Positions 54,328 through 59,079 of a stretch of 64,000 nucleotides of DNA are shown piece by piece. The notes beneath the pieces were generated by a model. It was not told the DNA's origin. It saw nothing but the letters and a program-made list of their open reading frames with translations, and did no database searches. The position numbers and the translations under genes are program-made. The first letter of the stretch is position 1, and every line of letters begins with the position of its first letter. This DNA comes from Methylophilaceae bacterium (GTDB taxonomy: Bacteria; Pseudomonadota; Gammaproteobacteria; Burkholderiales; Methylophilaceae), in NCBI GenBank assembly GCA_027488395.1, contig JAIYBT010000015.1:116679-180678 (forward strand). Reading direction: 5' to 3'.

Positions 54328-55140
54328 GTGGCAATCATGAGTTTAAAAGTACATCAAGGCAAAGCATTAATTACTGGCGCATCCACAGGCATGGGCGCGG
54401 TGTATGCAGATCGTTTAGCAAAGCGTGGTTATGATCTTGTGCTGGCAGCACGCGATGAAACAAAATTAAATGCAGTGGCCAGCCAACTAAGAGCCTCCTA
54501 TTCGGTTGAAGTCACTGTCCACGCAGCTGATCTCACCAACCCGACAGCGTTGGACAATGTCGAAACCCTGTTAAAAACCGATCAAGACATCAACCTATTG
54601 GTGAACAACGCTGGCTTAGGCGCAGTCACCAAATTAGCCGAATCCAATATCAACGATATCGAAACCATGATTTCACTCAACGTGATCGCGCTCACCAGAT
54701 TATCCAGCGCCATCGTGCCGCAATTCATCAGCAAAGGGCAGGGCGCCATCATCAATATCGCCTCCATCGTCGCGTTAGCGCCCGAACTCCTCAACGGTGC
54801 CTACAGCGGCTCAAAAGCCTATGTGGTGAACTTTACCCAATCCATGCATCACGAACTCGCCGATAAAGGCATCCGCGTGCAAGCCGTACTTCCCGGAGCC
54901 ATTGATACCCCGTTTTGGGATAAAAGCGGTTTACCTGTCAACAACCTGCCCGCACAAATTGTCATGACACCAGAAAAGTTGGTAGATGCAGCACTTGCAG
55001 GCTTTGATTTAGGTGAAGTCATCACCATTCCATCTTTACCTAATATTGAAGATTGGCATGCATTAGAACATGCAAGAAAAGCACTAGCTCCTAACTTGTC
55101 GCATACCACACCGGCTGAGCGGTATTTGTCAGTTGCTTAG
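54328..55140 (+). CDS. Short-chain dehydrogenase/reductase
   Basis: TGASTGMG, NNAG, YSGSK catalytic YxxxK, PG motif. Confidence 0.95.
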   Translation: MAIMSLKVHQGKALITGASTGMGAVYADRLAKRGYDLVLAARDETKLNAVASQLRASYSVEVTVHAADLTNPTALDNVETLLKTDQDINLLVNNAGLGAVTKLAESNINDIETMISLNVIALTRLSSAIVPQFISKGQGAIINIASIVALAPELLNGAYSGSKAYVVNFTQSMHHELADKGIRVQAVLPGAIDTPFWDKSGLPVNNLPAQIVMTPEKLVDAALAGFDLGEVITIPSLPNIEDWHALEHARKALAPNLSHTTPAERYLSVA

Positions 55141-55160: not shown

Positions 55161-55191
55161 AAAAAAGCCAGCTTCAATTGCTGGCTTTTTT
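55161..55191 (+). terminator. Intrinsic terminator after the SDR gene
   Basis: AAAAAAGCCAGC-TTCAATT-GCTGGCTTTTTT. Confidence 0.92.
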
Positions 55192-55199
55192 ATTGCTAT

Positions 55200-55234
55200 A
55201 TGTGACTTAAAGTCCGTGGATTTATAAGCAACAA
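55200..55234 (+). promoter_or_regulatory. C-box (tandem controller-protein operator)
   Basis: ATGTGACTTAAAGTCCGTGGATTTATAAGCAACAA: GACT-N3-AGTC left operator, central GT, degenerate right operator; 28/35 identity to the C.Esp1396I operator as I recall it. Confidence 0.85.
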
Positions 55235-55254
55235 GAACGCACCATCATTTAAAA

Positions 55255-55506
55255 ATGAGTAAACCCATGGAAACAAATATTCTGATTATTTTTGGTGCGG
55301 GCGTCAGACAGTTCCGCCTAGCGCAACAGCTTAGCCAAGAACAGCTTGCCCTAAAAGCAAATTTAGATAGGACTTATATCAGCGGCGTAGAGCGTGGTGT
55401 CAGAAATATTAGTTTGCTTAATATCCAAAAAATTGCCAACGCTTTAAATGTGACGCTACCCGTGCTTTTTAACGCGATTCAGCCACCTACAGAGGAAAAT
55501 CAATGA
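55255..55506 (+). CDS. XRE-family HTH controller (C) protein of restriction systems
   Basis: FGAGVRQFR...LSQEQLA...LDRTYISGVERGVRNISLLNIQKIANAL; directly behind the C-box. Confidence 0.9.
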   Translation: MSKPMETNILIIFGAGVRQFRLAQQLSQEQLALKANLDRTYISGVERGVRNISLLNIQKIANALNVTLPVLFNAIQPPTEENQ

Positions 55507-56875
55507 TTGATCAACTCATACAGTTGTTTAAAAACAAAGCAGAGGCGTTTGGGGCGGACCCAACAAAAGAGTTTGTTTTGCGTAATAACACCAAACCAGA
55601 ATCGTTAAATGATAACGGTGCTTACTTTGGCTTAATTTCGCCTGATGAGGAGAGTTCAGGCCAATTCCATGATTTTTCAATTGTGATGTTTCCGAACGTT
55701 GAACAAAAGCCCTATTTACTCACATTAGGTATTGGAAGTTTAGGTTTTAAGAACGACTATGAATTAGCTACTTATCCTGGTCTTAGACGGTTATTTTTAA
55801 AACTTATTGATGAAAATGGGTCTATCAAGTCTGATTTTTCGGATATCGATACAAATTTACCAAAGCCATTTATTAATCGACCTGAGTTACAACATATAAA
55901 AAACACGTTAGGTAAATATACAAAAGTATTGCCAGTGGCACAGATTATCGATGACCCACTACATCCAGAATCACAAAAGCGTATTTCAGCATTTATAGCT
56001 GCTTACGCATTTATACGTGGTTGGCCAAGTAACGATTCACATCGCAAAGCAATAGCGCAAGCTTTATCAAATTACAATCTGACGGATAGTGAGTCAGATG
56101 AAACGCAGGTGAAACGTTTGTTACTTGCGAGAAAGTTTGTCGTTTTGCAGGGCGCACCCGGCACAGGGAAAACCACGCTGGCTAAAAAGATTGGCCATGA
56201 AATTGCACAGTCAATTTACTTTACGCAATTTCATGCTGAAACCAGCTATGTAGATTTTGTCTCAGGTATTCAACCCGACGTTGAGAATAACAGTCTGCGC
56301 TATGTGCATCGGGATGGAGTGTTTGTACAAGCTGTGAAATATGCGGTGGAAAATCCAACACAAAAAGTGATTTTGCTGATTGATGAAATCAATCGTGCGA
56401 ATTTAGCCAGCGTACTCGGTCCGGCTTTTTATTTGTTTGAATATCAAATGCAAGCAACTATGACCAAAATAGATCTCACGCCAAATTTTTCAATCGAGGC
56501 TTTACCAGACAATTTTTATGTGATGGCAACCATGAATACCTCAGATCGTAGTTTAGCGGTGGTGGATTTTGCGCTACGTAGACGGTTTGCTTGGTACACT
56601 TTAAAACCCAAGCCACTGAGTATCAGCCATTTTTATAAAAAGGATTTTGACGAAATTGATAGGATCTTTAATTGGTATGCCAACGAAAACAAATAAATTT
56701 ACAACCGGGTCAAGGGTACTTTATTGCCGCAGACGAAGCAGCCATGCAAGACCGCATTCGTTATGAGATTTACCCATTAATCAAAGAATATTTGTTTGAA
56801 GGCCTGCTACAACATGCCAAAGAGGAATTTAACAGTTATTTTTTAAACAGAATCCAACAACCGCTTTTTGAGTAA
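55503..56875 (+). pseudogene. mcrB: McrB-like AAA+ GTPase, split by a 1-nt frameshift near 56690
   Basis: Walker A GAPGTGKT, Walker B IDEINRAN, McrB signature MNTSDRS, ALRRRF; frame stops at 56696 while the -1 frame (56672-56875) continues INLQPGQGYF...YEIYPLIKEY, a typical McrB C-terminus. Confidence 0.8.
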
Positions 56876-56878
56876 CGC

Positions 56879-58237
56879 ATGGATTTATTTTATGTCATGG
56901 ATTGTTTAACTGAGCTCTCTGCACTGCTCAAAGGCATTGACGTTCAAAAGAAACATCTAAAAGCCGCAGATAAAAGAATCATTGCGCAATACCTGCAAAA
57001 ATTTGTGCAATACAACCAAAAAGCATTGGATTTTTTAGGAGTACAGGCATGGGTAACAGGCACCGACCTGAATGCTGCGCTTCAATTTAGTGCCTCAAGC
57101 TATATCGGCTGTGTCCCACTGCGAGCTTCTGATACGGGTAAACAAATAGGCGATTTTGTAGTAAAACCAAGATACATCAACCAACAACAATATGATGAAT
57201 TTCTTGAAATACTCCACTTGCTCGGGCATGACATTTCCCCCGAATTTTTAGATGGATTAACTCTCAGCTCAGGTCACACGCTCAGACCACCACAATTTCT
57301 TGAAGCCATAAAATTTATCGATTTATTGCATCGTTTGTCTGGCGATGTTTGGCAGAAATTTGCTGTCATTCAACGTGAACAATCTACGCCTAGCGGCAAA
57401 GTCAATTGGGACAAATATGCGAAACAAAGCGCCCACCCTGAAAAGGCGCTTATGTTCCCACAGCGCAACAATAGCCTGACCGAAAACCATGCAGAATATG
57501 CAAAGTTACACTATGTGTTTGATCTATGTAGATCATTGCTAACACAAGCCCATCTCCCCAATGCATTGAAAAGACCAACGCAACAAAAAGTTGATTTTTT
57601 GACGCAACGTCTAGCGCCAATTGCTATGCAAACCACACGCAGCATCACGATAAAAAATAGCGATAAGCCATTGCTGCAAGCCTGTAAAAAACAAGCCAAT
57701 ATCATCTTGCAAAACCAAGCATTCGAGTGTCTTGGCTGGCGCTTAGATGTTGCCGAAATTTTTGAGCGCTATGTGCAGTACGTGTTTACAGAGCTCGCAA
57801 ACATTACAGGCGCTAGGTTGCATAAAAACGTCAAAATACCGGGACAGTTTAAAAAGCAATCAGCCTGGGAGCTCAAATATCTCGAACCAGATGCTATTTA
57901 TCAAAAAGAGCATTTAATGGTGGTTATAGATGCCAAATACAAATCACATTTTTATCATTTGGCTCATGACAGCGAAGCGCTCAAAGAGGAACATCGCCGC
58001 GACTTGCATCAAATTTTAGCCTACAGCGCGTTTAATCATAGTCCACATAAATCAGCAATACTGTGTTACCCAGCGCAATATTTTCAACATAAAACAATGC
58101 TTTATACCAATCCAGCGAACAACTGCTCCAACAAAGTCATCATGCTTGGATTGCCTATGAGCATCACCCTCTACAAAAACGCAAAACAAGCCATGATAGA
58201 GCTGTTACAGCAACTAGAGGCTGACACAGTACTTTAA
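56879..58237 (+). CDS. mcrC: McrC-like PD-(D/E)xK restriction nuclease subunit
   Basis: FERYV, LEPD...IDAKYK...DLHQILAY; follows mcrB. Confidence 0.88.
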   Translation: MDLFYVMDCLTELSALLKGIDVQKKHLKAADKRIIAQYLQKFVQYNQKALDFLGVQAWVTGTDLNAALQFSASSYIGCVPLRASDTGKQIGDFVVKPRYINQQQYDEFLEILHLLGHDISPEFLDGLTLSSGHTLRPPQFLEAIKFIDLLHRLSGDVWQKFAVIQREQSTPSGKVNWDKYAKQSAHPEKALMFPQRNNSLTENHAEYAKLHYVFDLCRSLLTQAHLPNALKRPTQQKVDFLTQRLAPIAMQTTRSITIKNSDKPLLQACKKQANIILQNQAFECLGWRLDVAEIFERYVQYVFTELANITGARLHKNVKIPGQFKKQSAWELKYLEPDAIYQKEHLMVVIDAKYKSHFYHLAHDSEALKEEHRRDLHQILAYSAFNHSPHKSAILCYPAQYFQHKTMLYTNPANNCSNKVIMLGLPMSITLYKNAKQAMIELLQQLEADTVL

Positions 58238-58281
58238 GCGCATGTTTTTCCTTGTGTTGATAAACTCACGCAATAATCAAT

Positions 58282-58316
58282 CATACTTTAAAAGTATGCC
58301 ATTCGGTATATACCGA
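58282..58316. promoter_or_regulatory. Stacked palindromes upstream of the small secreted-protein pair
   Basis: CATACTTT-A-AAAGTATG (58282-58298) and TCGGTATATACCGA (58303-58316). Confidence 0.6.
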
Positions 58317-58432
58317 CCTACCTATATCGATAGACGATTTGTAGACAAGCACCGCGCATAATGCAAACCATCGTGATTAAGCAAATGTTTAAAACTTACA
58401 TCACACTGTTCAACAAACAAAGGAGAGCAAAC

Positions 58433-58699
58433 ATGCGTAATTTAATTTCTGTCGTCGCTTTAGTCGCTGGTGTATTCGTGGCAGCCCCTGTCGTGGCAGC
58501 TGAACAAAATGTTGGTGCTGAAAATACACATGCCACACATCAATTTTTAAGCAAACGTCCCTATGTGGCACCTGTTGTAGCTAAGGCGGAAAGTGATCAA
58601 GCTTGGATTGGCGCAACACTGGTGGTAGATGGCAATCAGGCGGGTGCAAATGTGCATCAGCCACAAAGATTGCACAACCTCGGAAGACGTGCGTACTAG
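58433..58699 (+). CDS. Small secreted hypothetical protein, RPY-repeat paralogue 1 (88 aa)
   Basis: AGGAG RBS, signal-peptide-like N-terminus ending VVA, motifs HQFLSKRPY, DQAWIG, LHNLGRRAY. Confidence 0.85.
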   Translation: MRNLISVVALVAGVFVAAPVVAAEQNVGAENTHATHQFLSKRPYVAPVVAKAESDQAWIGATLVVDGNQAGANVHQPQRLHNLGRRAY

Positions 58700-58782
58700 T
58701 CAGACCTCTGTAAGGTTGGCGGGGTAGAGTGGCCCTGCAACCAGTGAAACACCCTATAAAAAAATATTTTAGGAGCGAACAA

Positions 58783-59079
58783 ATGAGCAAATTATTATTA
58801 GCAGTATTGGCTGTTGGTTTAGTTGCACAAGTACAAGCCGGCGATTTACCTGATGGTGAAACCAATGTGCGTACGCAACAACACAACAATTTTGTGGGTC
58901 AGCGCCCATATTCAAAAGCACCCAAGGTGCAGGCTAAAGGCGCCGATCAGGCTTGGGAAGGCACTGGCTTAGTGACACAAACGCCAGAGGAAGCTGAAAA
59001 AGCGTTGATGAAACATAACCAGTTACAGTTAAATTTTATGGGTAAACGCCCATATGTGGCACCGCGCAACGCAGAATAA
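58783..59079 (+). CDS. Small secreted hypothetical protein, RPY-repeat paralogue 2 (98 aa)
   Basis: AGGAG RBS, signal-peptide-like N-terminus ending VQA, motifs NNFVGQRPY, DQAWEG, LNFMGKRPY. Confidence 0.85.
   Translation: MSKLLLAVLAVGLVAQVQAGDLPDGETNVRTQQHNNFVGQRPYSKAPKVQAKGADQAWEGTGLVTQTPEEAEKALMKHNQLQLNFMGKRPYVAPRNAE

Follow-up and report, generated by a model that had tools for sequence, protein, structure and literature searches.

Based on homology searches and on the comparison of related loci and strains, a probable identity was proposed for the block at positions 55161-58237 of a 64,000-nucleotide stretch of contig JAIYBT010000015.1 from a Methylophilaceae bacterium (this whole stretch is referred to here as the window). 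The block is most likely a horizontally acquired, self-contained three-gene defence module, in which an autoregulatory controller (C) protein drives a two-subunit, McrBC-like nuclease. According to the open reading frame (ORF) map and the sequence, its elements lie on the same strand in the order hairpin terminator, tandem C-box operator, C gene, McrB-like gene and McrC-like gene (Table 1). No DNA methyltransferase (MTase) was found in the block, in the window or in the remaining contig with four DNA-MTase Pfam families, and the same MTase-less unit recurs in other genomes with operators that co-vary with the C protein. The block is a low-GC island of foreign, horizontally acquired origin, since its GC content is 38-43% versus 47-54% in the flanks and since a McrC relative is encoded by none of 24 genomes of the same genus.

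Organization of the block

An earlier reading of the same sequence (the original prediction) had placed a C-box, a C gene, an ATGA-coupled mcrB and an mcrC in a single unit that lacks an MTase and is preceded by a left-hand terminator, and each of these elements was recovered where it had been placed, with no match to the four MTase families anywhere in the window. The terminator corresponds to a hairpin whose arms form a perfect 12-nt inverted repeat (12/12 complementary) and which folds with -17.3 kcal/mol (z = -3.9), a value equalled by 0 of 200 shuffles. The hairpin was confirmed by this folding and was not called by a simple consensus terminator scanner. A GCCAGC...GCTGGC-T6 stem with varying loops is also located ahead of the C-box in the three closest homologous loci (L003, L004 and L007), where the upstream gene is another one. 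The hairpin forms the left edge of the module and may insulate it against read-through from upstream. At the other end of the C gene, the C stop codon and the mcrB start codon overlap as ATGA without space for an intergenic promoter, which at the sequence level points to co-transcription of the controller with the nuclease.

Table 1. Features of the controller-mcrB-mcrC block, in window coordinates.
Feature	Position	Strand	Description
Intrinsic-terminator hairpin	55161..55191	+	arms 55161-55172 (AAAAAAGCCAGC) and 55180-55191 (GCTGGCTTTTTT), loop TTCAATT, followed by a T-run
Tandem C-box operator	55202..55233	+	TG-GACT-TAA-AGTC-CGTG-GATT-TAT-AAGC-AACA
Putative weak -10 hexamer	55243..55248	+	CATCAT, presumed part of a C-dependent promoter
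Controller (C) gene	55255..55506	+	83 aa, Xre-type helix-turn-helix, DRTY recognition helix
mcrB-like gene, 5' part	55503..56696	+	397 codons, then premature stop
Frameshift site in mcrB	56685..56700	+	one base fewer than close relatives, A/T-rich stretch
mcrB-like gene, 3' part	56690..56875	+	-1 frame; ..LQPGQGYFIA..EYLFEGLL..; C-terminal lid conserved across the family
mcrC-like gene	56879..58237	+	452 aa, intact, PD-(D/E)xK nuclease with D338, D351 and K353

Controller protein and operator

The product of the C gene was matched by the PADLOC model Control_protein (2.5e-24) and by Pfam HTH_3 (2e-16), and its top PDB matches were C.AhdI (1.2e-14), C.BclI (1.5e-12) and C.Esp1396I (1.8e-11). 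The recognition helix lies in the context ..NLDRTYISGVERG.. / ..LDRTYISGVERG.. and is paired with the operator spacer CGTG, in keeping with the published class in which this spacer goes with a DR(T/S)Y recognition helix in the C protein (PMC2175313). By its sequence and its operator, the controller can be classified as a genuine member of the C-protein family. A cognate methyltransferase, as in the restriction-modification (R-M) systems of which C proteins normally form part, is absent from the locus, the window and the rest of the contig. No second C gene was found in the genome, that of the window being the sole one.

The published PvuII-type C-box has the consensus GACT-N3-AGTC-N4-GACT-N3-AGTC with TGTA or CGTG as the central spacer, and the native half-box 2A of PvuII is GATT (PMC2175313). 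In the window, the left operator O_L (GACT-TAA-AGTC, 55204-55214) is joined through the spacer CGTG (55215-55218) to the right operator O_R (GATT-TAT-AAGC, 55219-55229). Scored on the published consensus, O_L keeps 8/8 and O_R 5/8 half-box positions (GATT/AAGC), 13/16 in total, and the strong-left, weak-right asymmetry previously suggested for this operator is therefore real as far as the sequence goes. The flanking TG and ACA are present around the C-box, including the CA that, together with TG, is conserved in the C.Esp1396I operator (PMC3351150). The C-box core (GACTTAAAGTCCGTGGATT / GACTNNNAGTCNGTNGAYT, 55204-55222) has a single match in the window, against 0.01 expected. In the whole 2.45-Mb genome, the exact sequence GACTNNNAGTCCGTG occurs in one copy, matches with one mismatch stay at the level of a reversed-pattern control, and no second C-box was found, for example upstream of an MTase. 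In the sister loci the C-box is found at the corresponding place, and other loci with a C gene (C+ loci) have equivalent operators that co-vary.

Downstream of the operator, the window shares the conserved block GCACCAT(C/G)A (55240-55248), the probable -10, with L003, L004 and L007. The -35 region of the putative C promoter would overlap half-box 2A. There is no Shine-Dalgarno sequence ahead of 55255; the transcription start would fall on, or close to, the A of the start codon of the C gene, and the C mRNA is probably leaderless. Leaderless C transcripts have been reported as common (PMC2632904).

The Xre-type helix-turn-helix (HTH) is a generic fold, and the weaker matches of the protein to capH, HipB-like and SinR models would also suit a plain autorepressor or a sensor-type regulator under which mcrBC is silent until a signal is received. 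Dedicated repressors of defence systems are known (for example, PMC12255303 and PMC9122589), and the right operator overlaps the presumed -35. However, the best matches are by a wide margin bona fide C proteins, the 83-aa protein has no sensor domain, and the core promoter seems too weak to be active by itself. In addition, the bipartite C-box is complete and includes the perfect distal O_L, the site through which activation occurs in PvuII, AhdI and Esp1396I (PMC2175313, PMC3351150). Regulation by repression or sensing is thus an unlikely, though not negligible, explanation.

McrB-like and McrC-like proteins

The mcrB-like gene encodes a separate N-terminal domain (codons 1 to ~195, 55503-56090), the remainder of the protein being an AAA+ GTPase core. 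The core was matched by NCBIfam McrB (1.4e-33) and Pfam AAA_5 (2.3e-20), and was related to EcoKMcrB by a PDB profile search (7e-42) and by Foldseek (6hz4, 9e-13, with 36-37% identity in the structural alignment). The motifs GAPGTGKT, DEINR, an NxxD-type MNTSDRS and RRRF are present. The N-terminal domain, the model of which is confident (pLDDT 86, pTM 0.87), is highly conserved within the family. It has no Pfam, NCBIfam or PADLOC match, and its comparison with the DNA-binding domain of EcoKMcrB gave an hhalign probability of 0.7% and a Foldseek E of 6.4. Among 1.84 billion representative proteins, the domain is restricted to ~177 clusters at 50% identity, and nearly all of the listed full-length proteins that carry it are McrB-sized and have it at or near the N-terminus. 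Judging from the model, the domain is a candidate for a new fold that reads DNA or modified bases.

In the McrC-like protein, the D-13-D-x-K spacing equals that of D244/D257/K259 in EcoKMcrC, and D338, D351 and K353 are invariant among 30 homologues. NCBIfam McrC matches the protein at 3.7e-4. A total of 794 McrC homologues were found, most of which are without a name or called "hypothetical protein", and few of which are McrC-like by name. On the criteria of motor and nuclease, the enzyme of the block is predicted to be of genuine McrBC type and to be inactive in this genome. The McrC of the window forms a very long terminal branch (1.46 versus a median of 0.046) and has an atypical amino-acid composition, yet every family-invariant residue is kept; the gammaproteobacterial-type McrC clade, which comprises the window together with L003, L004 and L007, is poorly sampled.

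Frameshift in mcrB

The frame of mcrB ends at 56696, and the final ~60 codons run in the -1 frame to 56875, and the part encoded there aligns perfectly with 36 intact homologues at their C-termini. In L009, a contig of 98% identity that comes from another sample, 56685-56700 contains one extra base, which results in an open frame. The frameshift is a real, population-specific lesion, because contigs of three runs from one study (X3, X6 and X9) have exactly the window sequence at the site, whereas mcrB has its longer, open form in contigs of four runs (X1, X2, X7 and X8) from two other studies, in which the strains are about 98% identical. Sequencing or assembly error was ruled out as its cause, since three runs reproduce the frameshift independently of the assembly. 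Programmed frameshifting was likewise ruled out, since there is no X XXY YYZ slippery site and since the frame is plainly open in close strains and in all homologues. The inactivation of mcrB is recent, because only 4 synonymous and 4 non-synonymous changes separate mcrC from the allele of the intact strain. The intact coding sequences expected of a McrBC system are accordingly lacking here and are found in close strains and homologues.

Recurrence of the module and exchange of the controller

The closest homologues, L003, L004 and L007, show 50-52% identity for McrC and ~60% identity for McrB and C. They possess the same five elements in the same order, that is, the hairpin, a near-identical C-box, C, McrB and McrC, without an MTase, and they do so in a context different from that of the window, between an MS (mechanosensitive) channel gene and Phd/transglutaminase genes (housekeeping and toxin-antitoxin genes). 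In these three loci, a Phd/YefM-type antitoxin gene lies directly downstream of mcrC on the opposite strand (L003:9367-9609, L004:8454-8744, L007:5900-6531), and in L007 a PIN toxin gene stands beside it; the window has no equivalent.

A genome-wide scan yielded 80 further loci (L010-L089), all of which carry a McrB-McrC pair. Most of them are from Bacteroidota, and the others are from Nitrospirota, Campylobacterota, Bdellovibrionota, Acidobacteriota, Pseudomonadota and further groups. The C gene is directly upstream in 31 of the 80 loci and absent in 36, while 13 have too little upstream sequence to be assessed. The McrBC subfamily is unusually uniform across phyla, with a median terminal branch of 0.046; near-identical copies occur in metagenome-assembled genomes labelled Patescibacteria, Thermodesulfobacteriota and Bacteroidales, and many copies are on contigs of 3-6 kb. 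This uniformity of the L010-L089 copies suggests either that they were widely transferred very recently or that they reflect binning artefacts. The flanks of these loci contain no recurrent mobility gene.

In the C+ loci, the operator lies at a fixed distance upstream of the HTH gene and falls into at least five classes that track the C subtype, namely tGTGACTtAtAGTCCGTaGATTTAaAAGC, GACCCTTAAAGTCCGTTGACTTATAAGCC, CCGGACTcTACTCCGTTGCAATATAGaCC, GTAGACTATAGTCCGTGGTACAATAGaCG and a quite different ATGATACATATTGTATGTTGA..ATACAATATGTATAG type. Across these classes, the C proteins are 34-55% identical, versus 68-82% for the partner McrB and 71-83% for the partner McrC. The presence of C on the McrC tree is far more clustered than with shuffled labels. 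Because the operators co-vary with the C subtype, and because the presence of C changes on the tree and is yet clustered, the controller is, to judge from these patterns, an accessory, exchangeable cassette that is kept together with its operator and is functional rather than a decaying relic. Two Flavobacterium loci carry a second C-like HTH gene with 43% identity to the C gene product of the window, just downstream of mcrC on the opposite strand (L058:11439-11714 and L078:11443-11718, minus strand), which may belong to a neighbouring C-controlled system.

An arrangement of this kind might also serve as a two-pronged weapon against incoming methylation systems, in which McrBC would cut DNA modified by an invading MTase and the C protein would prematurely fire the nuclease of an incoming C-dependent R-M system of the same operator class while the cell is still unprotected by the MTase of that system (C-mediated mutual exclusion). 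We consider this improbable. If it were true, the repeated exchange or fast divergence of C and operator on a near-constant McrBC backbone would represent an arms race over C specificity, and the N-terminal domain of McrB would be a new kind of modified-DNA reader.

The flanks of the loci were also tallied by protein family. The commonest Pfam family occurred 4 times among 123 flank ORFs of 26 C+ loci and 3 times among 127 flank ORFs of 44 other loci, and no DNA-MTase family was among the listed recurring flank families of either group. No PADLOC MTase model matched more than one flank protein. A motif-based (regular-expression) MTase screen within +/-6 kb of all loci, which is crude and is backed by the Pfam and PADLOC tallies, gave 2 candidate ORFs in all. 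The tallies list the commonest families only, and they exclude a recurrent MTase, not a sporadic one.

The original prediction had offered two readings, a stand-alone, modification-dependent system that has adopted C-type control, or the remnant of an LlaJI/LlaI/BsuMI-type system that has lost its MTases, the second of which was to be preferred if all close homologues carried adjacent MTases and the repaired enzyme cut unmodified DNA. The neighbourhoods of the closest McrB homologues (L003, L004 and L007) contain none, the flanks of the 80 loci contain no recurrent one, and adjacent MTases as a general feature of the homologues are clearly refuted. The stand-alone part of the first reading is supported, as a recurrent C-controlled McrBC module, and the second reading is not supported, as the same MTase-less unit recurs across contexts and phyla. 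In such a remnant, the MTase of a C-controlled McrBC R-M system would have been lost recently, C would be a leftover, and the frameshift would compensate for the loss. It is true that mcrB is broken here, that LlaI joins a C protein and an MTase to McrB/McrC-like subunits (bioRxiv 10.64898/2026.08.31.748284), and that MTase-associated McrBC branches exist and may be ancestral (PMC11090510). However, the layout is a two-gene one, with the N-terminal domain fused to McrB and without an R1 gene, and no MTase remnant lies between the genes, which overlap or are 3 nt apart. Moreover, the unit occurs with intact genes in other contexts and phyla, close strains with an intact mcrB share the locus, and no DNA-MTase family recurs in the flanks. 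A remnant is therefore very unlikely.

Methyltransferases elsewhere in the genome

The four DNA-MTase Pfam families matched the genome only outside the window, with the nearest match ~65 kb to the left, and the matches comprise two C5, one N4/N6 and several N6 MTases. One region (G000:C12:155500-161900; L094:1-6390) is a tRNA-adjacent island with genes for a C5 DNA methylase, an Abi_2 protein and a HATPase_c_3 protein of 563 aa. This island is present in the frameshifted population (X3), and the runs with the intact-mcrB strain, at ~9x depth, contain no contigs of it. A further region (G000:C5:4500-9500; L095) is prophage-like and carries NinB together with two methylases, one C5 and one N4/N6. 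Its C5-MTase ORF occupies a variable slot, which the X7 contig skips cleanly and which in X1 and X2 holds an unlike sequence whose end reads like motif I or the start of a different C5-MTase. These differences fit a methyl-dependent nuclease that was inactivated after the gain of new cytosine methylases.

Although R-M genes are not always linked (PMC3874152), and although the two C5, one N4/N6 and several N6 enzymes would offer candidates, it is highly improbable that the nuclease is specific for unmodified DNA and that C times it relative to an unlinked MTase guarding the host, because the genome has no second C-box, because a module that depends on an unlinked protector would hardly be expected in dozens of unrelated genomes and next to unrelated genes, and because the examined MTase loci are strain-variable islands or prophage that are absent or replaced where mcrB is intact, the opposite of a protector.

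Proposed mechanism

For the module read as a C-driven McrBC-like nuclease, a probable scheme of activation followed by repression was proposed by analogy with PvuII, AhdI and Esp1396I (PMC2175313, PMC3351150, PMC12707154). The upstream hairpin would block read-through, so that expression could arise only from the module's own weak promoter. This promoter would yield little C, probably from a leaderless mRNA near 55255. C dimers would first fill the perfect O_L and activate transcription of C-mcrB-mcrC, with mcrB being translationally coupled via ATGA. At a higher C level, the weaker O_R, which overlaps the -35 region, would be filled and the promoter would be shut. Without an MTase, this circuit would most likely not act as a timer but probably as a clamp on the dose of a potentially self-toxic nuclease, independent of context and copy number and possibly bistable. 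A terminator that moves along with the module from one context to another fits such a dose clamp. A timing function would have no obvious purpose when there is no MTase to wait for, and clamped, insulated dosage or bistability fits better. The target of the nuclease would most likely be modified DNA, which the host itself does not produce, since a module that transfers freely and brings no protective enzyme would otherwise be unable to spread; the strains also differ in their MTases in a way that points to dependence on modification.

Several observations weigh against this account. The hexamers of the putative promoter are poor, a consensus scanner did not call them, and a run search found no RNA runs holding the stretch. 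A C gene is lacking in about half of the family, which makes the controller dispensable for the nuclease, and the presence of C requires at least 10 changes on the McrC tree, 3 of which are forced by well-supported branches. The N-terminal domain of McrB yielded no hint of its target, Foldseek against PDB giving nothing significant (best E 0.34, TM <= 0.31). With respect to McrC, Pfam McrBC matches 2 of 30 homologues (best 7.9e-9), hhalign against EcoKMcrC gave an E of 8e-4 and a probability of 24%, indicating weak sequence homology, and a PDB profile search found nothing. Because these sequence-level searches are weak, the McrC assignment rests on the catalytic motif, the weak NCBIfam match and the obligate pairing with McrB. 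The correlation between MTases and the frameshift comprises two populations, in which contigs show presence, not absence.

The module belongs to a large, highly conserved and widely transferred McrBC subfamily, whose putative reader domain, as modelled, is without a known fold. At the locus, PADLOC recognized the C protein through Control_protein, but the PADLOC 2.0 models matched McrB only via two REase_II models over the AAA+ core and none of them matched McrC, so automated defence finders probably miss this family.

Genomic setting

The left neighbour of the unit is a short-chain dehydrogenase gene, which ends at 55140. The right neighbours are two small secreted-protein genes with starts beyond 58360; according to the ORF list, the two adjacent small ORFs directly to the right of the island (58361-59079) have signal-peptide-like N-termini. 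The new promoter region placed on the right by the original prediction was recovered in part: a promoter-like site is located at 58257-58284, ahead of the next gene, but the evidence is weak, as the region has fewer such sites than shuffles. Mapping of the insertion borders on an empty site by means of the dehydrogenase gene was dropped, because this gene is poorly conserved (one same-genus match, 68%), and composition and the absence of McrC from the 24 congeners took the place of this approach. A search for terminal repeats or target-site duplications around the unit returned only short repeats at chance level.

Comparison with known systems

Within the searchable literature, a stand-alone, C-controlled canonical McrBC has not been described, and apart from LlaI no description of a C protein paired with McrB/McrC-like subunits was found (bioRxiv 10.64898/2026.08.31.748284). 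A census of McrBC systems includes MTase-, Type I- and DISARM-associated branches; in the passages searched, no controller or transcriptional regulator is mentioned, and HTH refers to C-terminal fusions of McrB and to RtcR-like proteins (PMC11090510). McrB and Type IV do not appear in the text of PMC2632904, and the C proteins covered in reviews of R-M regulation are from Type II systems and from a single Type I system (PMC12707154, PMC3874152).

LlaI from the Lactococcus lactis plasmid pTR2030 (LlaI.C, LlaI.M, R1, R2 and R3) resembles the block in that a controller protein accompanies McrB-like and McrC-like subunits. In contrast, LlaI possesses an MTase, a separate DNA-binding R1, an R2 motor without the N-terminal domain and site-specific targeting, whereas the block has neither an MTase nor an R1 gene and its putative reader domain is fused to the motor. 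The three R genes of the LlaI/BsuMI layout are accordingly replaced here by two. LlaJI and BsuMI likewise share McrB-like and McrC-like restriction subunits with the block, but have two MTases and no described C protein. With regard to the LlaJI.R1-type domain, the model of the N-terminal domain showed no significant match to any solved structure.

The block and EcoKMcrBC, which is the canonical Type IV, modification-dependent restriction enzyme of E. coli K-12, are both two-gene mcrB-mcrC operons with a tight or overlapping junction and no MTase. In both, McrB is an AAA+ GTPase with Walker A, DEINR, MNTxDRS and RRRF motifs, and McrC has the D-13-D-x-K catalytic triad. On the other hand, the N-terminal domains are unrelated, and the McrC of the block is ~100 residues longer and barely alignable. 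The C-type regulator, operator and upstream terminator of the block have no counterpart annotated directly upstream of E. coli mcrBC.

The BrxR/CapW WYL regulators and RptR are, as here, small DNA-binding regulators that stand at the head of a defence operon and travel with it. They are repressors of other folds or families with ligand or signal sensing, whereas the regulator of the block is of the C-protein family and has an operator of the activation/repression type.

The circuits of C.PvuII, C.AhdI and C.Esp1396I are similar to that of the block in their ~80-aa Xre-type HTH protein, in the bipartite operator GACT-N3-AGTC-CGTG-GAyT-N3-AnnC, whose distal site is strong and whose proximal site is weak, in the pairing of a DR(T/S)Y helix with CGTG, and in a C gene that is the first of the nuclease operon and is probably leaderless. 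In contrast to these systems, the nuclease of the block is of the two-subunit, GTP-dependent McrBC type rather than a Type II restriction endonuclease, and neither the locus nor the window nor the homologous loci contain a cognate methyltransferase. In the literature, the role given to C proteins is that of a timer, which delays the restriction enzyme until the chromosome is protected by the partner methylase, and this rationale is not applicable here because there is no cognate methyltransferase. The repeated attachment of a complete C switch to a nuclease without a methylase would mean that the switch must pay in other ways, such as a dosage clamp, bistable populations or cross-talk with R-M systems, and the long-assumed timer rationale of C proteins thereby becomes testable.

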